Counted from the first letter of the stretch, positions 3,010 to 52,830 are shown. The stretch is 59,473 nucleotides of DNA from Candidatus Woesearchaeota archaeon (GCA_014874255.1 JACWAN010000086.1:1-59473), one strand, 5' to 3'. Numbers and translations are program-made. The notes: generated from the letters alone by a model not told the origin.

Positions 3010-5724
<2,715 letters not shown>

Positions 5725-34187: not shown

Positions 34188-34341
34188 CGTCTCCGAGCCA
34201 CACGAGGAGAAACAGGGGCGCGTCTGCGCGACTGTGTCGTGGAGTGTGCGATAACACTCGCGATACGCCGAGCATGTCCGAGTCATACGAGGACCGGCAG
34301 GAGCGTCAGCGACTGCAGCCCGCGCCGCTCGAAGAACAAGA

Positions 34342-41375: not shown

Positions 41376-41651
41376 CTACTCCTCTTCCGGGCTGTAGTTC
41401 GGCACGGCGGACTTGTTGATGATCATGATGTCGCCGATGCTCTTGACGAGCTGGTGCGGGACGATGACGCCCTTCGCGCTGCCCAGCACCTTGTTGAGGA
41501 AGCTGTTCTTCGTCGCGCGGACGCGCCACCCGAAGATCTTGTTCTGCGTCAGGATCATCTCCTCGACGTCGCCGAAGTAGTCGCCGGTGTCGGTGAACAC
41601 CTTCATCTCGTACGTCTCCGTTATCCGCTTCATCTTCAGCATGCGCATCAC
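41376..41651 (-). CDS. PRC-barrel-like small protein
   Basis: 91 aa with VFTDTGDYFGDVEEMIL..GVIVPHQLVKSIGDIMII. TATA-like ATTTAAAT about 35 nt upstream. Confidence 0.55.
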   Translation of the reverse strand: MMRMLKMKRITETYEMKVFTDTGDYFGDVEEMILTQNKIFGWRVRATKNSFLNKVLGSAKGVIVPHQLVKSIGDIMIINKSAVPNYSPEEE

Positions 41652-41708
41652 CTTGGAGCTTGATATGCTGCTACAAGACCGTCAGTATTTAAATGTTTTG
41701 GGGATGCG

Positions 41709-41876
41709 GGCTCTTAGACAAATGAGGTGTTGCCGGCCAAAGGGCGACCCGTAGCGATAAGAAGAAACGGAGAGTTGAGGGGGTTGCCCCCTACGGGGCT
41801 TCAACGATGCAGCGAAGAACGAAACGACACGGGTCGCAGCCGGCAACACCGCCGAAGGTGAATTTGCCTAAGAGCC
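41709..41876. mobile_element. R-family MITE, copy R3 (168 bp)
   Basis: TIRs GGCTCTTAGACAAAT / ATTTGCCTAAGAGCC. The flanking direct repeat is at least GGATGCG (41702-41708 and 41877-41883). Confidence 0.8.
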
Positions 41877-41948
41877 GGATGCGGCCGCGATGAAAATGCG
41901 GGTCACCGTCCTTCCCTCCGCCGGCCGATCCGTCGCCGGTAGTCGCGC

Positions 41949-42096
41949 CGTGGTCGCTGCTGCTCCCGGGTTCCTCGTATGACTCGGAACCGTGGTCGCT
42001 GCTGCTCCCGGGTTCCTCGTATGACTCGGAACCGTGGTCGCTGCTGCTCCCGGGTTCCTCGTATGACTCGGAACCGTGGTCGCTGCTGCTCCCGGG
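41949..42096. repeat. perfect 42-bp tandem repeat, 3.5 copies
   Basis: Unit CGTGGTCGCTGCTGCTCCCGGGTTCCTCGTATGACTCGGAAC at 41949, 41991 and 42033, with a partial copy at 42075-42096. Confidence 0.9.
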
Positions 42097-42144
42097 CGCT
42101 CCTACCGTCAGAACAGTCGCCGGTAGTCGCGCCACCCTCCTTTC

Positions 42145-42543
42145 TCAGCGCAACCGTTCTTCGAGGAGTTTCGAGAGCTTGCCGATGATGGCCTGGATGC
42201 GCGGCACGTTCCGGCTGACGTAGTCCGCGGGCACCATGAACCCTTCGTACGCAATCCTGTTCCGGTACTCCCTGAGCCCCTGCAGGAAGACCCTCGTCCC
42301 CTCTCCGAGCAGGTATTCCTTGCACGCATGGTCGATCAGCCGGGTGTGCGCGCCGTCGCCCTGCGTCTTGACGCCCTCGACGGCCGCGAGCGCCTCGAGC
42401 AGCTTGTGGATGATGTCGTAGTAGTCGGTCAGGGTGTTGGAGGGATAGGCCTCCTTCTCGGTCAGTTCGAGCCGTTCGAGGGTGACCATCGCCATCTTCC
42501 TGAGCGAGGCGGCCTTCTGCGGGTCCGGACGCACCTTCCGCAT
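42145..42543 (-). CDS. HEPN-domain protein (toxin partner of MNT)
   Basis: 132 aa, all-alpha, with LREYRNRIAYEG in the motif region. Its start abuts the stop of the upstream nucleotidyltransferase. Confidence 0.6.
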   Translation of the reverse strand: MRKVRPDPQKAASLRKMAMVTLERLELTEKEAYPSNTLTDYYDIIHKLLEALAAVEGVKTQGDGAHTRLIDHACKEYLLGEGTRVFLQGLREYRNRIAYEGFMVPADYVSRNVPRIQAIIGKLSKLLEERLR

Positions 42544-43098
42544 TCAGAACGCCTCCAGATAGCCGCTCAGGACGACGCCGTTCGCGATGTTGTTCTTCAG
42601 TTCCGCAGGGTAGCGCTTGAACTCCGCTCTGCGGTGGAGCTGGATCCTCCGTCCGAGCTTCCGCTCGAACGACGCGAGGTCGGGCGCCTCGGCCTCGCAG
42701 GCGAGGTAGAGGTCGATGTCGCTCTCTTCCAGGTCCTCTCCCTTGGCGTAGCTCCCGAAGAGGACGATCGCGTCAGGGAGCATCTTCTCCTGCAGGAAGG
42801 CGATGAGATGCGTCTCTTCCAGCTGGAGGAGGTTCTGGATGCGTTTCGCTGAGCGGTAGGTCTCGCTCTCCACGTCTGCACGGTACTTGATGTATCGTCG
42901 CCCCCCCTGGAGCTCGATCCGCTCGCGGATGATGCCTTCCTTCCTGAGCGCCGCGAGATGCGCCTTGACGGAGGTGTGGGCGAGCTTCACCTTCCGCGTC
43001 ACGTCGACGAGGCCGTGCTCCTTCCCGGGTTCCCGGAAGAAGACGCCCGCCACCCGCCACATACTACATTTTTGTAACATGTGTGACATTTTTGTCAC
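42544..43098 (-). CDS. wHTH-fused minimal nucleotidyltransferase (MNT); start uncertain (43080 or 43062 possible)
   Basis: NTase motif LFGSYAKGEDLEESDIDLYL. N-terminal wHTH (LAHTSVKAHLAALRKEGII). The TATA-like TATTTAAAT at 43103-43112 is too close to 43098. Confidence 0.65.
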   Translation of the reverse strand: MTKMSHMLQKCSMWRVAGVFFREPGKEHGLVDVTRKVKLAHTSVKAHLAALRKEGIIRERIELQGGRRYIKYRADVESETYRSAKRIQNLLQLEETHLIAFLQEKMLPDAIVLFGSYAKGEDLEESDIDLYLACEAEAPDLASFERKLGRRIQLHRRAEFKRYPAELKNNIANGVVLSGYLEAF

Positions 43099-43229
43099 AT
43101 CTCCTATTTAAATGTTGTCGATCGGTGGCCGATCCTCCGTATCTCCGGAGCGTTTCCGGATTCTTTCCCGCAACCGTTAAGAAGGTTTTTCTCCTCACTC
43201 AGCTATCGCTCGGTGCAAACATTTTTAAA

Positions 43230-43255
43230 GTATACTGTAGTATACTGAGGTATAC
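43230..43255 (+). promoter_or_regulatory. three phased GTATAC palindromes (putative antitoxin operator) downstream of a TATA-like box
   Basis: GTATAC at 43230, 43240 and 43250, with exact 10-bp phasing. ATTTTTAAAG at 43221-43230. ATG at 43257. Confidence 0.5.
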
Positions 43256-43256
43256 C

Positions 43257-43505
43257 ATGAGCGTGACGACCATCAAGGTGCGGGGCGAGACGAAAGCGCT
43301 GCTCGACGGCTTCCGCGAGCATCCATCGGAGAGCTACGACCTCATCGTGCGGAAGCTCGCGAGCGTGGCGAAGGTCGCCTGGAACGAGCCGAAGCTCAGC
43401 AAGCAGACCGTCCGGGAGATCGACGCCGCACGCAAGAGGATCGCCGCAGGCGAGTACTACACCGAGCAAGAGCTGAAACGGCTGCTCGGTGTGCGCCATG
43501 CATGA
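43257..43505 (+). CDS. RHH/CopG-like antitoxin
   Basis: MSVTTIKVRGETKALLD is a ribbon-helix-helix start. It overlaps the downstream RelE-like ORF by 8 nt. Confidence 0.6.
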   Translation: MSVTTIKVRGETKALLDGFREHPSESYDLIVRKLASVAKVAWNEPKLSKQTVREIDAARKRIAAGEYYTEQELKRLLGVRHA

Positions 43506-43741
43506 ATTGATCATCGACAAGGAGGCGGCGAAGGCCTTGGCGAAGCTCCCGCGGCGGGCGAGCGGTCGGATGCTCCGGGAAGTTGTTCGCATCGAAGGAT
43601 GATCCGTACCGCTTCTTCTCCCGTCTCGTCGGCAGGACGGATTATCGGCTGCGCGTCGGCGACTATCGCGTCTTCGCGGAGATCGACGCAGTACGGATGG
43701 TGGTGACTGTGGTCAAGCACCGCAGGGACGCCCATGACTAG
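43498..43741 (+). pseudogene. relE: RelE/ParE-family toxin, frameshifted
   Basis: Frame 1 gives MHELIIDKEAAKALAKLP..VVRIEG* (stop at 43600). The +1 frame from 43601 gives DPYRFFSRLVGRTDYRLRVGDYRVFAEID..VVTVVKHRRDAHD*, the canonical RelE C-terminal half. Confidence 0.6.
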
Positions 43742-43884
43742 AACCGTCGCTTATAGTCTCTCCATGGTCGCTGCCGCTTTCGGAAGACGGTCGTGCGTTC
43801 CGGACGCTCTCCGGTTTTTTCTCAGCAACCTTTTTCTATCCCTCCCTCCTCTTCTGCACAGACGAGAGCGAAAAATTTAAAAAG

Positions 43885-43903
43885 CAGTTTACTGTACAAA
43901 CTG
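43885..43903 (+). promoter_or_regulatory. inverted repeat CAGTTT-N7-AAACTG overlapping the vapB start region
   Basis: It lies between the TATA-like AAAAATTTAAAAAG (43871-43884) and ATG 43905. Confidence 0.4.
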
Positions 43904-43904
43904 T

Positions 43905-44135
43905 ATGGTGAGTGTCACTGTGGCCGTTACGCCGGACCTGAAGCAGGAGATGGAGCGTTACCAGGATGTCAACTGGAGCGCGGTCGCGCGGGACGCGATC
44001 CAGCGCAAGCTCCTCGTGCTCCAGCGGATGGACGAGCTCCTCAAGGACAGCACGCTCACTGAGAAGGATGCGCTCTCGCTCGGCCGCAAGGTGAACGCGG
44101 CGATGGCGAGGCATCCCCGTGCGTCTCGTCGTTGA
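43905..44135 (+). CDS. vapB: VapB-like antitoxin
   Basis: 76 aa. Overlaps the downstream PIN gene by 17 nt. Confidence 0.55.
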   Translation: MVSVTVAVTPDLKQEMERYQDVNWSAVARDAIQRKLLVLQRMDELLKDSTLTEKDALSLGRKVNAAMARHPRASRR

Positions 44136-44529
44136 TGCGAACATCCTCTTCGCCGCGCTCGTCAGGGACGGCCTGACCCGCCAGCTTCTCTTCGAGCACG
44201 AGCTGCTCGCGCCGACGTTGATGCTGCGGGAGTTCCGCAAACATCGTGCCGTGCTCGAACGGAAGACCGGATTGCGTGACCACCTCCTCGACGAGCTTCT
44301 CTCCCTGCTTATCCAAGGTTCTGGCCTGCGTTTCCTCGAGCCGAGCGGTCGGATGCTCCGGGAAGCGGAACGCTTCTCCCCCGACAAGGGCGATGTCGAC
44401 TATCTCGCCCTCTGTCTCGATGAGGGCTGTGATCTCTGGTCGAACGACAAGCCGCTCCGTGGACAGGCGCGCGTCCGTGTCTGGTCGACGGAAGAGCTTT
44501 TCGGGAGCCGTCAGAACCGTCGCCGGTAG
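44119..44529 (+). CDS. vapC: PIN-domain toxin VapC
   Basis: GTG start. VVDANILFAALV (first acidic residue), ..DVDYLAL.., ..LWSNDK. Confidence 0.75.
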   Translation: MRLVVDANILFAALVRDGLTRQLLFEHELLAPTLMLREFRKHRAVLERKTGLRDHLLDELLSLLIQGSGLRFLEPSGRMLREAERFSPDKGDVDYLALCLDEGCDLWSNDKPLRGQARVRVWSTEELFGSRQNRRR

Positions 44530-47500
44530 TCGCGCCATTCCCGTTCGATCTGCTCCTCGTCCTCGCCGTTCTGCCGCGCGATGCCGTAGAACTCTTCCTT
44601 GCTCACGTGCTTCTGCGGCCCGGAGCGCGGCCCGAACCGCTGGAAGAAGATGAAGAGGAACCCCACCACGGGGACGAGGAGGAGGGAGAGCCACGGGCTC
44701 AACGGCCGGCCGACGCTCTGCGCGTACGCCAACGCCCGTAGCTGGGCGGCGCAGTCCGGGCTGATGTCCTTCGGCACGGTGAACCGGATCGTCTGCGCCT
44801 GGTCGAGGGTGTCGAACTGCCAGACGATGAGGGGGTCGTCCTGCACGACCTGGTAGTCGCCGCTCAGGTTGAGTTCGGACGCTTTCCCAGCCATGCATTT
44901 CGGGATCTCGATGGGGACGCGGAGCCCGCCGAGGCTCTTGCTCGGCGTGAGGGTCAGGTCGAACGCGGTGCCGTTGTCCGTCTTCTCCGTCTTGACGCCG
45001 ATGCTGAGCGCGTCCTTCGTCTTGTTCCACGCGTCGAGGAGCGACCCGTTCGCCTCCTGCGTGTAGGTGATGTTCGCGATCTCGATGAAGGAGAGGTAGG
45101 TGGGCTGGATGGGTCCGTTCGCGGCCGCGATCACGTCCTGCCGGGCGACGAGCCGCCCCACGGTGAAGCGGAGCGTCGTCGGCGACAGCGGCCGCATCTC
45201 CGCCCCGGTCACCTGCAGGGCCGACGGCACGTCGACGATGGTCTGGTAGATGGTCGCGGTGAACCCGACGTTGTCCAGGGGGGCTGCGCCGAGGTTCGAG
45301 ACCGAGAAGTCGAGGGCGCCGTCCCGGAGGCCGACCTTGATGAAGACGGGGCCGTTCGTCGCGAGGATGTCTTCCAGGTCGGCCGCGACCGTCGCGCTCT
45401 GGTTGATGACCTGCTGCGGCTGGCACCGGCTCAGGGTGCAGTCGCCCGGGTTGACGCACGAGTAGCCGTTGCCGCAGTCGCTGTCCTGGTCGCAGATGAC
45501 GCTGCAGTTCTGGACCGTGACGCACTTCCCGGCCTGGCACTGCTGGGCCGCGGTGCATTGGTTGCTGCACGCGCCGCAGTTGTCGTGGCTGCCCTGGAGG
45601 TCGACGCATTGGCCGTCGCAGCTCGTCGTGCCGGGCTGCGACTGGCAGGGCCGGAGCTGGACGCACTGGCCGCTGCCGCCGCTGACCGTGCATTCCTGCT
45701 CGTCCGTGCATGTGCGGACCGGCAGGGAGGCGTTGCAGCTCGGGTCGTACTGGACGAGGTCGTTGCCGATGCAGCGGAGCGTCGTCGGGCCCGTGCACTG
45801 GAGGCAGGAGTTCTCGTTCGCGCACCGGCCGCTCGCGCACGCCTGCCCGCTGTTCCAGACGTACGAGACGCCGTTCCACGTGCAGCTCCGCATCCGGCCG
45901 TCGCTGCACTCCGTGTCCCCCGCCGAGCAGGCGTCCTGCGGCGTGCAGTCGAGGCACGTGCATTCCCCGTTGGCGCAGACGCCTTGCCTGCCGTCGCTGA
46001 GCGTGCAGGACGCGGTGTTCGCCACATGGGTGCACGCGCCTGCGGCGCAGTGGTCGTCGGTGCAGGCGTTGCCGTCGTCGCACTGGCCGTTCGCCGTGCA
46101 GCCCGGAGCGGCGCACTGGCCGCCGCTGCAGGCCTGGCCGGCGGGGCAGTTCGCGGGCGCGCTCCACGCGTAGCACGCGCTCCCGGGCAGCTGGCTGCAC
46201 GTCTGGGTCTGGTTGGCGCTGCACCGCGACGTGCCGGGCACGCAGGGGTTGCTGCACGCGACGCAGATGCCGTTGCTGCATGAGCCCGCCTGATCGCCGA
46301 CGCTGCACGCCGTCGCGTCCGCGACGTTCGTGTACTGGCACGTGGAGTCGACGCATTGCGCGGTCTGGCACTGGCCTCCCTGCGTGCAGGACGCGTTCGT
46401 GATGTAGCAGTTCGCCGCTAGGCAGCTCGTCGCGTCCGCGCACTGTCCGGTCGTGCACTCGGTGGTGTTCCAGCCGAGCCAGCCGCCCTTGTCCACGCAC
46501 GTGCTGAGGCTGCCGCTGCTGCACGCCGTCGTGCCCGGGGAGCTGCATTGGCTCAGGGGGACGCAGGCGTGGACGGTCGCGCTGCACGTGGCGCCGCCCG
46601 TGCACGTGGCGCCGTTGTCCACGAGGCCGTCGCAGTTGTCGTCGAGGCCGTTGCAGATCTCCGTCGCGCCGGGGTGGATCGCCGCGTTGGTGTCGTCGCA
46701 GTCCTGGCTGTTCGTCACGTAGCCGCCGGGCGGGCTCACCGCCTGGATCGTCACGGCGGGGTCGCCGTACCCGTCCCCGTCCGCGTCCTTGTAGTAGGTG
46801 TGGACGGGGAGGCACTGCCCCGCGCTGCAGATGCGGTTCGTGCCGCATGACGTCCCGTCCGCGAGGTCCGCGTGAGTGCACGTGCCGGCGGCGACGCTGC
46901 ACGCGTCCGTCGTGCACGGGTTGTCGTCGTTGCAGTCGGCGTCCTTGGCGCACGAGCCGCACGACGCGCCGCCGCTGCCCGTGACGCAGGTGATCGCGCA
47001 CGTCTGCTCGTCGGTCCAGTAGCTGCACCCGTACGCGTTCGCGCTGCAGGATTGGATGGTGTTGCCGCTGCACCGCGTCGTGCCCGTGCATCCCTCGTAC
47101 GGCGATGCCTGCTGCACGCAGGCGCAGGTGCCGCCCTGGTTGACGTAGCCGGCGGAGCAGCCGTAGCAGCTCGTCGGGCTCGTGCAGAAGTACTGGCTGA
47201 AGAGCGTCGCGTGCGCCGGCGCGGGCGACGCGCAGAAGTACGGGTTCGCGCAGGACGCGACGCACTGGCCGCCGCTGCATGTCTGGCCGGCGCCGCACGT
47301 GCCGCAGCTGCCGCCGCACCCGTCGTCGCCGCATTGTTTGCCGGCGCAGTTCGCCGGGCGCGGATCAGTCGCCTGGCACGCGCCGTACTGGCCGTTGCTG
47401 CAGTACTTCGTCCCGGTCGCGGTGCACGTGCCGAACGCGGCGGTGCAGTTCGCCGAGGCGGCTCCGCAGTTCAGCGTGCCGCCGCACGTGTCGGATTGCT

Positions 47501-48542
47501 GGCCGCAGTTGTAGCCGAGCGCGCTGCACGTCGGCGGAGACAACGGGGTGCACGTCGACGCTGGCGGCGTCCACGCGCCGCTGCTGCACGTCTGCTTGAG
47601 CGTGTTCGCGCACTCCCCGCTGCCGCACGAGACCGTGTTCGTCTGGCCGGCGCTGCACTCCGTCCCGACGCACTGGCCGCTGCTGCAGACCTGGCCGGAG
47701 GGGCAGGCGTGGCCGCATGATCCGCAGTTGTTCGTGTCCGTCTGGAGGTTGAGGCACGTCGCCGTGCTCCCGCTGCCGCACTGCGAATAGCCGGCGTTGC
47801 ACGTGCACGTCCCGCCGCTCTGGTGCGCGTTCGCGTTGCACGCGTAGCAGCTCCCCGCGTCGCAGTAGTACTGGTTGAAGAGCGTCGCGAGCGTCCCCGC
47901 GCTCCCGCAGAAATACGGGCTGCCCAGCGCGGCGCAGGACGGCTTGCACGCGCCGTTCCCCGTGCACACGCTCCCCGCCGGGCACGTCTGGAAGTTCCCC
48001 CACGAGAGACACGAGCTCCCCCCATAATACCCGCACGTCTCGCTGACCGTGCGGCTGGAACAAGCGGTATCATATAGTTTTCCGCAAGTATCAGTGCATG
48101 AAGTTGTGCATTGACCGCTTGATGCGTCGCACGTCGTGTTAGAACCGCACGTCTGCACGTACTGCCACTGGAGGCAGCCGCTCACGCTCGTACACACGTA
48201 CAAGTCCTGGTTCGACGTCCCCGTGCACGAATGCGTGTTGGCTGTCGTGCACGTCGGCGTACAGTTCGCCACGCACGTCGTTCCGTCCCAGTTATATCCC
48301 GATGCGCAGCCATAGCATTGTTGCGGAGAAACGCAGACATAAGGTTCAAGAATTGAATGTGCTGGTTGGGAACCAACACAAAAATAAGGGTTTGGACAAA
48401 AATTGTCGCAATCACCGCACGGAGGGAATTGACCGGTTTCTCCTGGTTCGCAGATGTTGTTATTATTGCAGCTTGCTTGGACAAAGCGAGGGATAACTAT
48501 GAATATGATGAGGATAAGTAAGATCTCCCACCTCCACTTCAT
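44511..48542 (-). CDS. giant cysteine-rich secreted surface protein with C-terminal TM anchor
   Basis: 1343 aa. Signal peptide MKWRWEILLILIIFIVIPRFVQAS. About 1 residue in 9 is Cys over roughly 950 aa (CxxGQC-type repeats). MopE-like segment YYKDADGDGYGDP..DCDDTNAAIHPGATEICNGLDDNCDG. Beta-rich stalk, a TM segment (LLLVPVVGFLFIFF) and a charged tail. Confidence 0.8.
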   Translation of the reverse strand: MKWRWEILLILIIFIVIPRFVQASCNNNNICEPGETGQFPPCGDCDNFCPNPYFCVGSQPAHSILEPYVCVSPQQCYGCASGYNWDGTTCVANCTPTCTTANTHSCTGTSNQDLYVCTSVSGCLQWQYVQTCGSNTTCDASSGQCTTSCTDTCGKLYDTACSSRTVSETCGYYGGSSCLSWGNFQTCPAGSVCTGNGACKPSCAALGSPYFCGSAGTLATLFNQYYCDAGSCYACNANAHQSGGTCTCNAGYSQCGSGSTATCLNLQTDTNNCGSCGHACPSGQVCSSGQCVGTECSAGQTNTVSCGSGECANTLKQTCSSGAWTPPASTCTPLSPPTCSALGYNCGQQSDTCGGTLNCGAASANCTAAFGTCTATGTKYCSNGQYGACQATDPRPANCAGKQCGDDGCGGSCGTCGAGQTCSGGQCVASCANPYFCASPAPAHATLFSQYFCTSPTSCYGCSAGYVNQGGTCACVQQASPYEGCTGTTRCSGNTIQSCSANAYGCSYWTDEQTCAITCVTGSGGASCGSCAKDADCNDDNPCTTDACSVAAGTCTHADLADGTSCGTNRICSAGQCLPVHTYYKDADGDGYGDPAVTIQAVSPPGGYVTNSQDCDDTNAAIHPGATEICNGLDDNCDGLVDNGATCTGGATCSATVHACVPLSQCSSPGTTACSSGSLSTCVDKGGWLGWNTTECTTGQCADATSCLAANCYITNASCTQGGQCQTAQCVDSTCQYTNVADATACSVGDQAGSCSNGICVACSNPCVPGTSRCSANQTQTCSQLPGSACYAWSAPANCPAGQACSGGQCAAPGCTANGQCDDGNACTDDHCAAGACTHVANTASCTLSDGRQGVCANGECTCLDCTPQDACSAGDTECSDGRMRSCTWNGVSYVWNSGQACASGRCANENSCLQCTGPTTLRCIGNDLVQYDPSCNASLPVRTCTDEQECTVSGGSGQCVQLRPCQSQPGTTSCDGQCVDLQGSHDNCGACSNQCTAAQQCQAGKCVTVQNCSVICDQDSDCGNGYSCVNPGDCTLSRCQPQQVINQSATVAADLEDILATNGPVFIKVGLRDGALDFSVSNLGAAPLDNVGFTATIYQTIVDVPSALQVTGAEMRPLSPTTLRFTVGRLVARQDVIAAANGPIQPTYLSFIEIANITYTQEANGSLLDAWNKTKDALSIGVKTEKTDNGTAFDLTLTPSKSLGGLRVPIEIPKCMAGKASELNLSGDYQVVQDDPLIVWQFDTLDQAQTIRFTVPKDISPDCAAQLRALAYAQSVGRPLSPWLSLLLVPVVGFLFIFFQRFGPRSGPQKHVSKEEFYGIARQNGEDEEQIEREWRDYRRRF

Positions 48543-51149: not shown

Positions 51150-51686
51150 ATGTTCCAAAAAAAGAACGATTTGTTCGTCGTCGAGCTCCTCGGCGCGGAG
51201 CCGATGCACCTCCGCCGAATCGCGGCAGCGACGGGGATCGCGCCGAGCACCGCGCTCCGCCTGCTGACGAAGCTCCAGGCGGACGGCGTCGTCGACCGCC
51301 GCGAGGAAGGACGGAACGCGGTCTACTTCCTCAAGAGCACGCCCGAAGCGACAATCCACAGTCTCATGGCAGAACACCAGAAGCTCCTGCGCCTCCTCGA
51401 GGAGTCTGAACTGCGGCGCATCTACGCAGAGATCACGCGGGAAACCGACGGCGAACTCGTCATCCTCTTCGGCAGCCACGCGAACGGCACAGCAAACGAG
51501 GGAAGCGACATCGACCTCTACGTCGAGACGACCGATCCGAAGAAGGAGCGAGCGATCGAGCTGATCAGCGACCGGATCCACCTCACGATCGGCTCGCTCC
51601 GGAAGGACTCCGACTTTTTCAAGGAAATCGTTAAGAACCATGTCATCCTGCAGAACGCCGAACGGTTCTTCAGGCTGATCGCATGA
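51150..51686 (+). CDS. wHTH-fused minimal nucleotidyltransferase (MNT)
   Basis: TATA-like TTTATAAG about 28 nt upstream of ATG 51150. wHTH LRRIAAATGIAPSTALRLLTKLQADGVV. NTase motif LFGSHANGTANEGSDIDLYV. Confidence 0.7.
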   Translation: MFQKKNDLFVVELLGAEPMHLRRIAAATGIAPSTALRLLTKLQADGVVDRREEGRNAVYFLKSTPEATIHSLMAEHQKLLRLLEESELRRIYAEITRETDGELVILFGSHANGTANEGSDIDLYVETTDPKKERAIELISDRIHLTIGSLRKDSDFFKEIVKNHVILQNAERFFRLIA

Positions 51687-52150
51687 ACATATTCCTCAAG
51701 AAGCTCGTCGCGGAAAGGAAGGTCGTCCTCGTCGGGCAGAACGGGAACCTCGCGCACGCGTACGCGGAGAAGTCGCGGAACTCGCTGAAGGCCGCGAAGA
51801 TCCTCCGTCGGGAAGAGCTTCCTGAAGAGGCGACGACGATGGCGTACTACGCGATGTATCACCAGGCGCTGGCGCTCCTCTTCTCCACCGGCATCAAATC
51901 GGAGAACCACGCAGCGACGGCCATCCTGCTCGCAGAGCTCTTCGTCGTCGACGGCGACGCGCTCGCCGCCGCGAGAAGGACGCGCGTCAAGACGCAGTAT
52001 TACGCCGACGCGGAGATGACGCGGGCGAAAGCCGAGACGCTCATCAGGGAAGCGGAGACCTTCACTACAGGGATCCGCGACAGGATTGACCGGCTCACCA
52101 CTACAGAAAAAGCACACATCCGGGCGGAGTTCTCTCGCGAGTACCTCTGA
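51683..52150 (+). CDS. HEPN-domain protein
   Basis: 155 aa, helical. ATGA overlap with the MNT gene. Confidence 0.6.
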   Translation: MNIFLKKLVAERKVVLVGQNGNLAHAYAEKSRNSLKAAKILRREELPEEATTMAYYAMYHQALALLFSTGIKSENHAATAILLAELFVVDGDALAAARRTRVKTQYYADAEMTRAKAETLIREAETFTTGIRDRIDRLTTTEKAHIRAEFSREYL

Positions 52151-52312
52151 CAGGCTCCGCCTCCCAAGACATTTTCCGACGGGGCCGGACCACGGACGGC
52201 AGTACCGGATCACTGCCGGAAAACGCCCGCAAAGCCATATATTGGCTGTCCGCTCACCAGCACGCAGGTGTCAGCGGAAACCATATAAACTACAACGCAT
52301 TTTAGAATTAAA

Positions 52313-52588
52313 ATGAAAGGGAGCGACGTGCTGATGATGACGACGATGTCGAAGAACGGCCAGATCGTCATCCCGATCGAGCTGCGGAAAGCGCTGAAGC
52401 TCGAACCAGCGACCCAGTTCTTCGTCTTCGAGGAAGACGGCGGACTCGTCCTGAGACGCGTCTCGAAGAAGCTCCTCGACGACATCCGCGCGGGCGAAGA
52501 GGATATCAAGCAGGGCAGGTCACTTACCCTTGACACCGACATGAGCGTGAAAGAGATGGATGAACGCCTACGTCGGTGGAAGCCGTGA
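52313..52588 (+). CDS. AbrB/SpoVT-family antitoxin
   Basis: SKNGQIVIPIELRKALKL is a swapped-hairpin motif. TATA-like CATATAAAC about 27 nt upstream. Confidence 0.65.
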   Translation: MKGSDVLMMTTMSKNGQIVIPIELRKALKLEPATQFFVFEEDGGLVLRRVSKKLLDDIRAGEEDIKQGRSLTLDTDMSVKEMDERLRRWKP

Positions 52589-52830
52589 AGATAACATTCT
52601 CGAAGCGATTCTGGAAAGCGTACACTCGGCTCAAGGATGATGCACTCAGAGAACGGATCCAGAAACAACTCCGGAAAGCGCTCGAAAACCCCGAGATAGG
52701 CAAGCCGCTGTCGTACAGCCTCAAAGGACTGCGGACGCTCCGGGTCGATCCGTATCGGATCATCTATGCGGTAGAAGGGGAGACCCTTGAGGTTATCGCG
52801 CTCGGCAACCGGGACGACGTCTACGAATAG
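52576..52830 (+). CDS. relE: RelE/ParE-family toxin
   Basis: GTG start overlapping the antitoxin. KGLRTLRVDPYRIIYAVEGETLEVIALGNRDDVY. Confidence 0.7.
   Translation: MEAVKITFSKRFWKAYTRLKDDALRERIQKQLRKALENPEIGKPLSYSLKGLRTLRVDPYRIIYAVEGETLEVIALGNRDDVYE

Follow-up and report, generated by a model that had tools for sequence, protein, structure and literature searches.

Architecture of the locus

The window, a stretch of 59,473 nucleotides from a Candidatus Woesearchaeota archaeon (DPANN; genome G000, a metagenome assembly of 1.29 Mb in 122 contigs), carries three toxin–antitoxin (TA) modules behind a surface-protein gene. They are set apart by spare copies of the last 27 bases of that gene, herein named A to D. 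The features are listed from the target gene toward the distal flank, with positions counted from the first letter of the window.

44511–48542, minus strand: surface-protein gene (target), 1343 aa, Cys-rich, membrane-anchored (from the ORF and its translation)
44511–44537, minus strand: copy B, functional gene end, TGGCGCGACTACCGGCGACGGTTCTGA on the minus strand, WRDYRRRF-stop
43905–44529, plus strand: VapBC cassette, vapB 43905–44135 and vapC 44119–44529, overlapping by 17 nt
43799–43833, plus strand: 37-nt element (hairpin, T-run, GCAACC) upstream of the vapBC promoter; second copy at 43144–43178 upstream of the RHH-relE promoter
43738–43764, minus strand: copy D, displaced gene end, CTAGAACCGTCGCTTATAGTCTCTCCA, WRDYKRRF-stop (TAG)
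43257–43741, plus strand: RHH antitoxin gene (43257–43505) and relE/parE pseudogene (43498–43602, then 43598–43741 in the +1 frame)
42145–43062, minus strand: wHTH-MNT nucleotidyltransferase gene (42544–43062) and gene of a 132-aa partner (42145–42543)
42105–42134, minus strand: copy A (27-mer 42108–42134), displaced gene end, WRDYRRLF-stop
41948–42096, minus strand: 42-nt tandem array of 3.5 perfect units between copies C and A (TRF score 298)
41931–41950, minus strand: copy C, partial gene end, GGCGCGACTACCGGCGACGG, TTCTGA lost, 20 nt identical to B
41709–41876, plus strand: MITE-like element of 168 nt, 15-nt terminal inverted repeats, GGATGCGG target duplication
41376–41651, minus strand: PRC-barrel gene (Pfam PRC), bordering the variable slot distally and conserved in the genus

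The surface-protein gene end and its copies

The surface protein has a signal peptide, a Pfam Cu-binding_MopE motif, a C-terminal transmembrane helix, and a cytoplasmic tail. An alignment of 10 orthologues shows conservation of both its C-terminal domain and the W..Y.RRF tail. The 27-mer corresponds to the final eight codons of this gene plus the stop, and the first-pass annotation was thus correct in taking the rightmost repeat as the true C terminus of the opposite-strand gene. TCAGAACMGTCGCCGGTAGTCGCGCCA matches at 42108–42134 and 44511–44537, which are identical at 26/27 positions as had been reported, with zero matches expected from 100 shuffles; the identity grows to a 30-mer (42105–42134 versus 44508–44537, 29/30). 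Within the genome the 27-mer is confined to this one locus, and its 19-mer core has no match elsewhere in the 122 contigs. An exact 18-mer search of 185,579 species genomes gave 38 matches, about the chance number, all in unrelated GC-rich bacteria.

Copies B and D each contain the end of a toxin gene. Copy B and vapC overlap by 19 nt, and the last five vapC codons with their stop (QNRRR-stop; CAG AAC CGT CGC CGG TAG, 44512–44529) come from copy B; VapC homologues are of about equal length at this end, but without NRRR. The relE stop (TAG, 43739–43741) overlaps the stop of copy D within CTAG, and the two toxin genes therefore do end in the same register inside the repeat, as had been observed earlier. 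Copy A begins 10 nt past the stop of the 132-aa partner gene. The MNT gene and its partner recur together as a module of two genes in other Woesearchaeota settings; because the core is missing there, copy A must derive from the local surface-protein gene.

Copy D had been described as a degenerate copy at 43740–43758. The copy is real and, in register, spans 43738–43764 with 20/27 bases in common with the gene end. The seven nucleotide changes that set it apart from B are either silent or R>K (P = 0.001 for random change), and it can still be read as an allele-like gene end; hence, D is best seen as a former functional end and not as a decayed copy. On its 5' side lies the tail (...GCAGCGACCA) of a hairpin block, and a ...AGCGACCAC tail precedes copy C in the same way; over 43 nt, C and D share 77% identity. 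The earlier inventory of A, B, and D stands, but copy C and the 42-nt array had been missed.

Across events, the gene-end repeats measure 20, 27–30, 43, 60, and at least 78 nt, the pairs being A/B (30 nt), C/D (43 nt), those of G001 (60 nt), and those of G010 (at least 78 nt). In G000, G001, and G010 their left edge falls on the Trp codon, even though the nucleotide sequences differ strongly; the right edge ranges between +3 and over +53 nt past the stop.

Toxin–antitoxin cassettes

As proposed in the first-pass annotation, the copies of the gene 3' end partition the locus, delimiting VapBC on one side and the frameshifted RHH-RelE together with the wHTH-MNT gene and its partner on the other. 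VapC matches PIN_2 (E 2.7e-13) and VapB matches RHH_12, VapB_Sulfo, and NF050799; with a predicted PIN toxin following an overlapping small RHH/VapB antitoxin gene, the cassette has the organization of a type II module. The RHH antitoxin shows a weak match to Pfam DUF7557 and the C-terminal half of RelE a weak match to ParE_toxin (E 3e-4); the pair shares 57–61% amino acid identity with that of G004. The MNT protein has an N-terminal wHTH and matches NTP_transf_2, Polbeta, and MntA. The 132-aa partner has no match in Pfam, NCBIfam, or the PDB, and none against two HEPN proteins; one of its homologues is labelled UPF0332 by JGI. Of the cassette contents named before, VapBC, the RHH-RelE pseudogene, and MNT are thus supported, but the HEPN label follows from position and this one homologue, and the partner is herein called putative HEPN/UPF0332-like.

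The inserts measure 0.6–2.4 kb and contain TA genes only, in mixed orientations; the units are small and bear promoters. Their GC content of 0.63–0.64 is the same as that of the window. The relE and vapC genes carry a common 24-nt identical patch, and the two copies of the 37-nt element align with a local score of 26, above all 300 shuffles, with no further copy elsewhere in the genome. Patch and element, common to both cassettes, may reflect internal recombination in the island.

Distal repeats and integrity of the assembly

Each unit of the 42-nt array consists of a hairpin block (GGTTCC-GAGTCATACGAGG-AACC) and CGGGAGCAGCAGCGACCAC. The units beside A and C are members of a genome-wide dispersed repeat family, the 13-mer loop of the hairpin block having 39 genome matches with varying stems. 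Between the array and the promoter of the PRC gene sits the MITE-like element, of which the contigs carry over 70 copies.

Since the source is a metagenome assembly of 122 contigs, the copies might be strain variants of the gene end chained artificially, and one Logan contig (L171) does end inside the 42-nt array. We give this reading hardly any weight: Logan assemblies of two different sequencing runs independently reproduce 42067–45015 at 100% identity, including copies A, D, and B, both cassettes, and the relE frameshift, and the pattern recurs in seven assemblies from different studies.

The slot in related genomes

The slot between the surface-protein and PRC-barrel genes differs among sister species, and the variants of cassette content that had been envisaged do exist. 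In G002 and G003 the slot is empty, with 338 and 295 bp, respectively, between a single gene end and the PRC gene; it holds ParE and RHH-RelE in G004, and DUF4258/DUF2283 with a ParE-like gene in G001. The PRC-barrel protein is 90–91% identical in G002, G003, and G004. The flanking repeats of the present locus match the single-copy sequence at the empty sites, which are orthologous and not identical because G002 and G003 are different species. In G004, the cassettes are bounded by another repeat.

Of the 20 related loci, 7 have a second intact Y-x-R-[RK]-[FW]-stop farther downstream in the same orientation; the controls (opposite strand, upstream regions, shuffles) have none. The site is reused across four genera, with the proximal copy always restoring the surface-protein gene. 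In G010, which belongs to another genus, a Fic/Doc plus RHH cassette is directly bracketed by 78-nt copies that are 97% identical and differ by TTC>TTT and TAA>TGA, and the displaced copy of L165 carries 7 silent differences (P = 0.0002). Because displaced copies (D, G010, L165) differ silently or conservatively, they were probably functional ends once, in other lineages.

Tandem gene-end copies only 29–51 nt apart occur in G001, G009, L157, L165, and L166. Such cargo-free tandem ends mean that duplication is not always linked to a cassette, and they bring to mind a minisatellite of gene end and hairpin block that arose first, by slippage or unequal crossing-over, with TA cassettes landing later in its spacers through unrelated events, so that the repeats would mark no insertion mechanism. 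The clean 60-nt tandem repeat of G001 (2.5 units, 97% identical, without cargo), the perfect 42-nt units of G000, the two unit types whose order is swapped between G009 and L166, and the dispersed nature of the hairpin block would all suit such an origin. We nevertheless regard it as quite unlikely, since D sits between the near-identical B and A with coding-preserving changes only, where random divergence of units predicts otherwise, since the near-identical copies of G010 bracket their cassette directly, and since each insertion point lies immediately after a core.

Recombinases and attachment sites

The earlier statement that no integrase is present extends beyond the window: none lies between or beside the repeats, and none adjoins the gene end in any of the 20 related loci. 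Elsewhere in the genome six PF00589 tyrosine recombinases are encoded, all on other contigs, and tblastn of these six proteins against the window gave no match. A tyrosine integrase acting site-specifically on the last ~27 nt of the gene as attB is a possible, albeit doubtful, explanation; the TA cassettes would then be decayed remnants of larger stacked elements, or integrase-less modules mobilised in trans (CIME accretion, pdif). The sharp left boundary recurring at the Trp codon speaks for it, as do the reuse of one site across genera, the constant restoration of the gene by the proximal copy, an "...AGCGACC" arm conserved 5' of displaced copies in three species, and the six genes themselves; archaeal elements, too, use 3'-distal gene regions and form arrays, with att sites of 29–69 bp (PMC6563490). 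An attP-like second core is, however, absent from the whole genomes of G000, G001, and G010, and on viral contigs the three 18-mer matches are unrelated phage coding sequence, with no K-type pattern. Together with the integrase-free neighborhoods of all 20 loci, the spread of repeat lengths (20 nt up to at least 78 nt), the differences between the B and D cores scattered over all 27 nt, and the different repeat bounding the G004 cassettes, this argues against an integrase. Of the serial site-specific insertion put forward initially, target duplication at the gene end is retained (7 of 20 loci and the G010 cassette), but "site-specific" is not supported, given the varied lengths and the G004 repeat.

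It is very improbable that the repeats are attC sites of an archaeal integron-like cassette array. TA-cassette integrons do occur in Nanoarchaeota (PMC9668308), and small, promoter-bearing units would suit one. The attC-like folding considered earlier fails: single-stranded folds of the A, D, B, and C boundaries, on both strands, are no better than shuffles (z −0.67 to +1.39, 200 shuffles). No R''/R' pair (RYYYAAC...GTTRRRY, 40–130 nt apart) is found on either strand of 41601–44800, no IntI-type recombinase with attI and Pc was found beside the array, and Rfam gave no match; on the fold scores, the missing core-site pair, and the missing IntI and attI, this reading is largely refuted. The mixed orientations and a repeat that is the coding end of a host gene also oppose it.

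Proposed origin of the island

The locus suggests that a conserved gene end receives small addiction cassettes that do not encode a recombinase themselves. In the reading that we prefer, and to which we assign about an even chance, the 3' end of the surface-protein gene is a landing pad for serial insertion at the Trp codon by DNA that brings replacement ends, most likely through host recombination. Incoming DNA would carry its own last eight codons and stop, followed by a TA operon, and would be joined at or adjacent to the invariant Trp codon; the gene would retain an intact end, and the earlier end would be displaced downstream as a non-coding fossil. Read from distal to proximal, copy C would be the oldest end; copy A would have come with the hairpin-block repeats, copy D with RHH-RelE and MNT with its partner, and, last, copy B with VapBC. 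The enzymology would most likely be Campbell-type or homology-facilitated integration by the host of DNA from related lineages, with the conserved gene tail as the homology, a route that would match the "insertion with long target duplication" known for restriction–modification genes; unequal crossing-over between copies would then grow or shrink the array. The TA modules would persist because their loss is counter-selected.

In favor of the landing pad, we count the locus-specific repeat far beyond chance, the empty sites and differing cargo in sister species, the downstream second ends against none in controls, the G010 cassette, the coding-preserving differences of displaced copies, the varying repeat length with no integrase at the window or the 20 loci, the 24-nt patch and 37-nt element with cassette GC equal to that of the window, and the bacterial precedent for addiction genes (PMC2853133). 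Several points count against it. The constant left edge at the Trp codon is closer to what a defined crossover site would give than to the outcome of general homologous recombination; the 30-nt identity of A and B is short for RadA-type recombination and within the archaeal att range (29–69 bp); the six tyrosine recombinases could act in trans; tandem ends 29–51 nt apart are not the product of simple Campbell integration; and A and B are nearly identical though two events apart in the model.

Comparison with known systems

Integron arrays, including archaeal ones (Ghaly et al. 2022, PMC9668308), are likewise built from small cassettes, often TA modules with a stabilising effect on the array. 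They differ from the present island, which lacks attC hairpins, core sites, IntI, and attI, shows mixed orientations, and uses a host coding end as boundary repeat. The pdif modules of Acinetobacter plasmids are also small, recombinase-less, and often TA pairs, bounded by sites of ~28 bp and moved by a host enzyme (PMC6449649, PMC13141974). The XerC/XerD sites of pdif modules, however, have dyad symmetry and alternate in orientation along plasmids, whereas the core described here is a non-palindromic direct repeat of chromosomal coding sequence.

Neisseria minimal mobile elements (cited in PMC3787668) are differing cassettes that related genomes have at one position, framed by the same conserved genes, and that are exchanged through homologous recombination with no mobility gene involved. 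Exchange resembling this is seen here between G009 and L166 and between G000 and each of G001, G002, G003, and G004. Such elements are not known to duplicate a flank, as has happened here on the proximal side.

Archaeal integrated elements are several kilobases or larger, encode their own integrase or casposase, and have att sites of 29–69 bp (2019, PMC6563490). They share with the island a target at the 3' end of a protein gene, a replacement end with stop, direct repeats, and reuse of the site into arrays (PMC6563490), and the flanking direct repeats rebuild the target gene end here as attL/attR-type repeats do. They differ in that the units of the island measure 0.6–1.6 kb and hold TA genes only, with no integrase at any of 20 loci.

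Long-target-duplication insertions of restriction–modification (RM) genes lack a mobility gene; their repeats exceed 30 bp, vary in length, and often include a start or stop codon (Furuta et al. 2010, PMC2853133). A relative with an empty site has the repeat there once, and a repeat that spans a stop or start codon lets the target gene survive (PMC2853133). Here, the cargo is type II and type VII TA modules (the latter with a putative HEPN partner) instead of RM genes, the host is a DPANN archaeon with several events stacked at one gene end, the A/B repeat of 30 nt is at the lower limit of the Nobusato/Furuta criterion, and the displaced copies resemble diverged alleles and not fresh duplicates. 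What the two have in common is a small addiction-type complex (below 20 kb) without a mobility gene, flanked by variable direct repeats that occur as a single copy at the empty site of relatives.

The gene end and its copies

The genome of the window (1.29 Mb in 122 contigs, 81.5% complete; the window is contig C64) encodes a Cys-rich surface protein of 1343 amino acids that has a signal sequence at the N terminus and, at the C terminus, a TM helix and a cytoplasmic tail of ~45 residues. Its true end is WRDYRRRF-stop, read on the minus strand from the 27-mer TGG CGC GAC TAC CGG CGA CGG TTC TGA (the core), as the first-pass annotation had proposed for the rightmost repeat. The gene end and the array downstream of it are built as follows:

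44511–44537, minus strand: copy B, the functional end, WRDYRRRF-stop
Between B and D: vapB and vapC (PIN_2, E 2.7e-13; RHH_12/VapB)
43738–43764, minus strand: copy D, in register, WRDYKRRF-stop with TAG as stop codon
Between D and A: RHH antitoxin gene and relE/parE gene with a +1 frameshift
Between D and A, divergent from the RHH-relE pair: genes of a wHTH-MNT nucleotidyltransferase and its 132-aa partner
42108–42134, minus strand: copy A, WRDYRRLF-stop
Between A and C: perfect tandem array of 3.5 x 42 nt
41931–41950, minus strand: copy C, a fourth copy with 20 identical bases

The 27-mer had been placed at 42108–42134 and 44511–44537, and both positions are exact; the two copies share 26 of 27 bases (29 of 30 with three extra bases included), where shuffles predict no match. 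The repeat is specific to this locus, and no copy of the core lies elsewhere in the 122 contigs. An exact 18-mer of it finds 38 matches in 185,579 species genomes, all in GC-rich unrelated bacteria, and these are chance matches. Two Logan assemblies, made independently from different sequencing runs, contain the stretch 42067–45015 without a single base change. Therefore, the structure is not an artefact of assembly, an explanation left with next to no probability.

Displaced copies as former gene ends

Copy D, described before as degenerate, is real and in register, and it is allele-like instead of decayed. It differs from B by seven nucleotides: CGC>AGA (R>R), TAC>TAT (Y>Y), CGG>AAG (R>K), and TGA>TAG. 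The K is the commonest residue at this position in the family, and when five changes are placed randomly in the constrained 21 nt, the family motif survives in 0.1% of trials. Because its differences preserve the motif, D is not a decayed B; judged by these substitutions, it appears to be the end of a diverged allele formerly in use. Copy A carries an R>L change, which is predicted to be disabling, as expected for a fossil. Comparable patterns are seen in other genomes: in the repeats of G010, an AT-rich relative from another genus, TTC>TTT and TAA>TGA are the only differences of the gene-end part, and the copy in the related locus L165 shows seven silent differences (P = 0.0002, a biased figure because this copy was found through its motif). 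At D, in the sister species G004, and in the related locus L157, the stop of the convergent neighbor and that of the gene end share 2 nt, a close packing that is normal for two functional genes.

Toxin–antitoxin cargo

Each of the three operons terminates at a core copy. The shared register of relE and vapC holds: the relE stop TAG stands where vapC reads CAG and continues through NRRR-stop. VapBC and the RHH-RelE pair with its broken toxin gene were likewise correctly recognized. The GC content of the cassettes (0.63–0.64) equals that of the window.

Of the previously named HEPN-MNT pair, the MNT nucleotidyltransferase stands, and the HEPN assignment is putative; the 132-aa partner (42145–42543) has no match in Pfam, NCBIfam, or the PDB, nor to two bona fide HEPN proteins. 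The partner is one of a large Nanoarchaeota family of 124–144-aa proteins, with more than 180 homologues of 50–64% identity in Nanoarchaeota/Woesearchaeota; an MNT gene adjoins the partner-family gene in every case, and one member is labeled UPF0332 by JGI. The partner represents an uncurated family that is possibly HEPN/UPF0332-like. The best VapC homologue is merely 48% identical and therefore provides no informative second context.

Two unrelated toxin genes share a stretch of 24 identical nucleotides (43559–43582 in the relE pseudogene, 44342–44365 in vapC), which encodes SGRMLRE in the same frame and precedes the relE frameshift by ~20 nt; it is likely a gene-conversion patch. In addition, a 37-nt element with a CCGGA..TCCGG hairpin, a T-run, and GCAACC is found at 43144–43178 and 43799–43833, ahead of the RHH-relE and vapBC promoters, respectively. 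Its alignment score exceeds those of all 300 shuffles, and no further copy exists in the genome. Ectopic recombination within the island is a possible source of both the patch and this element. A second TA cluster at 51150–52830 has no comparable boundary repeats.

Repeat families around the array

The 42-nt units beside A and C do not represent copies of the gene end; they are members of a dispersed hairpin-block family. This family is defined by a conserved loop, GAGTCATACGAGG, with 39 genome-wide matches at ≤1 mismatch, by varying stems (GTCC/GGAC, TCTCC/GGAGA, GGTTCC/GGAACC), and by a tail, GGAGCRTCAGCGAC; its appearance suggests a REP/PATE-type repeat or a family of small RNAs. In the window, members lie at 41948–42096 (the 42-nt tandem units) and at 34280. 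An earlier candidate reading, in which the 42-nt unit equals the 60-nt unit of the sister species G001 minus 18 nt, was dropped, given that the unit belongs to this dispersed family. The block tail "...AGCGACC" is found 5' of displaced ends in the window (C and D) and in G001 (u2 and u3, the successive gene-end units of its array), and a near-identical "...AGTGACC" lies 5' of u3 in L157. The sequence 5' of C and D shows no significant similarity to the gene codons that precede the core (p = 0.25).

A 168-nt MITE-like element at 41709–41876 has 15-nt terminal inverted repeats (GCTCTTAGACAAAT / ATTTGCCTAAGAGC) and an apparent target duplication (GGATGCGG); most contigs carry copies, more than 70 in all, and many of these are at contig ends. 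At least five related families of repeats are found in the window.

The same slot in related species

Within the genus, four of the seven further species have an orthologue of the surface protein, as do other genera of the family; the alignment of the orthologues shows a nearly invariant W..Y.RRF tail. The variable slot is bounded distally by a PRC-barrel gene (41376–41651, minus strand), whose identity is 90–91% in G002, G003, and G004. Its content downstream of the surface gene is:

G003: 295 bp, cassette absent
G002: 338 bp, one small ORF
G001: 2.5 tandem 60-nt units (gene end plus hairpin block), followed by DUF2283/DUF4258 and a ParE-like gene
G004: two TA cassettes, one a ParE toxin (E 2.6e-10) with its antitoxin, the other an RHH-RelE pair of 57–61% identity to that of the window
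G000 (window): 2860 bp with three TA operons

In G004, the stop of the ParE cassette overlaps the surface-gene stop. With two empty sites and different cargo among G000–G004, the locus is not invariant; the slot is thus variable between species, which is the level of all comparisons. Used as an anchor in species genomes, the PRC protein yields 80 loci with surface-gene synteny in two only, so that this comparison is confined to the genus; no exact-protein match to it is on record. In G004 (locus L065), a direct repeat of ~38 nt (CGAGTTTTTSTCATGAAGMCATATGAAGA, cassette strand) precedes both TA cassettes at ~3420–3470 and ~4010–4060. It is unrelated to the surface-gene end and therefore constitutes a different boundary repeat in the same slot.

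Recurrent duplication of the gene end

In 20 loci, 10 from species genomes and 10 from metagenome contigs, the sequence behind the gene was searched, on the strand of the gene, for another Y-x-R-[RK]-[FW]-stop. Seven loci contain one, three of the seven copies having been identified via their coding motif; the opposite strand, the upstream sequence, and 100 shuffles of each locus contain none.

Second gene-end copies and their distance after the stop of the surface gene (nt)
G000 (window), copy D: +756
G001 (sister species): +43
G009 (close relative of L166): +29
G010 (other genus): +878
L157 (related locus): +40
L165 (related locus): +51
L166 (related locus): +29

In G010, a Fic/Doc and RHH cassette is flanked by 78-nt repeats of 97% identity, composed of the last 22 nt of the gene and 55 nt downstream; the interval between them is partly N-masked (L068, positions 1332–1430). 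The close relatives G009 and L166 carry two gene-end types in swapped order with different cargo behind (four genes, one of 357 aa, in G009; HEPN and MNT in L166), and homology returns at a common downstream gene. In the recent duplications (A/B of the window, u1/u2 of G001, and G010), identity begins 24 nt ahead of the stop, at the Trp codon. Read-through is rejected as a way of translating the downstream copies, because their frames disagree and in-frame stops lie between.

Several further features were observed at these loci. An ORF in L068 (2355–2543) has an aspartate decarboxylase (PanD)-like N terminus, and its C terminus repeats 19 residues, TIDEEILRRFRSYCKENKI, of the adjoining RHH antitoxin, a chimera that suggests another recombination joint. 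A gene of 357–363 aa without a Pfam match and with an NTase-like GS..SDID motif (L067 of G009, L157, L158) is convergent to the surface gene in three lineages, its stop overlapping the displaced gene-end copy; a similar 364-aa gene lies behind MNT-partner pairs in L191–L193. In the AT-rich L067, L166, and L068, the last codons (AGAAGATTCT etc.) and the next bases form perfect 6–12-bp hairpins that contain the stop codon, each duplicated gene end having its own.

Proposed order of insertions

Serial insertion is the simplest and most likely reading. Each insert would open with its own W-to-stop "replacement end" and land at the Trp codon of the end then in place, which would leave the newest end beside the gene and older ones farther away. 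We infer that C came first, followed by A with the hairpin blocks, D with RHH-RelE and the MNT-partner pair, and lastly B with VapBC; the functional end would thereby have switched from R type to K type and back to R type. What had been noted about the locus is confirmed, and its interpretation as serial site-specific insertion is partly supported.

For the underlying process, we give about an even chance to host recombination acting on DNA of related lineages, either Campbell-type or homology-facilitated and equivalent to long target duplication. A recombinase is missing from every cassette, repeat lengths vary, and displaced ends are allele-like, all of which speak for it; the constant edge at the Trp codon, the short A/B identity (30 nt), and the cargo-less tandem copies, which require unequal crossing-over or cargo loss, speak against it. 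That the array arose first is quite improbable.

Toxin–antitoxin modules are among the most mobile prokaryotic genes. To our knowledge, the movement of naked two-gene cassettes is largely unexplained, above all in DPANN, in which few mobile elements are recognized. The locus is an unusually readable record of it, with four gene-end generations, three cassettes, allele-like fossils, sister-species sites that are empty or hold other cargo, and the same scar at one gene in four genera of the family. We know of long target duplication only from bacterial restriction-modification genes; if host recombination alone is at work, it would extend this mode beyond them and explain how addiction and defense cassettes spread and stack in reduced genomes. 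More tentatively, DPANN might possess a general, integrase-free form of cassette capture in which a conserved gene tail is the pad, small addiction modules with their own regulation bring a short "replacement end" for it, and the stacked, still readable ends form a dated record of past captures and of switches between alleles at the C terminus of the gene. In such a scheme, the hairpin blocks 5' of displaced ends in three species may supply portable homology or act as a recognition arm. For annotation, short "orphan" gene-end copies behind conserved genes can mark recent cassette insertions.

Comparison with known systems

Archaeal elements insert into 3'-distal regions of protein genes and form arrays at one site (PMC6563490). 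The window contains no tRNA and hence no tRNA target, and no Rfam family reaches the gathering threshold in it (41550–42200 yields chance-level matches only). The attC-like folding suggested for the boundaries was not borne out, as their folds are no better than those of shuffles. Neither IntI nor inverse core sites were found at the array, which is thus not a member of the integrons, and an origin as one is exceedingly improbable.

With integrase elements, the array shares flanking repeats and a restored gene end. An integrase acting in trans is rather unlikely, six tyrosine recombinases encoded elsewhere in the genome, on contigs C12, C19, C99 (two), C108, and C110, being candidates to act on the core. 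As initially remarked for the island, no integrase is present in the window, nor beside any of the 20 loci. A second copy of core or unit is missing from G000 and G001, and G010 has weak partial matches elsewhere only. In viral contigs, the core pattern gives three matches, all in phage coding sequence in another frame, and the K-type core none; no attP-bearing or related virus or plasmid was found by this search.

The closest resemblance is to long target duplication (PMC2853133). The cargo differs, being TA instead of RM, and the A/B repeat of 30 nt lies at the lower limit of the criterion of those authors. Common to both are addiction-module cargo without a mobility gene and repeats of variable length that span the stop and correspond to a single copy at the empty site.
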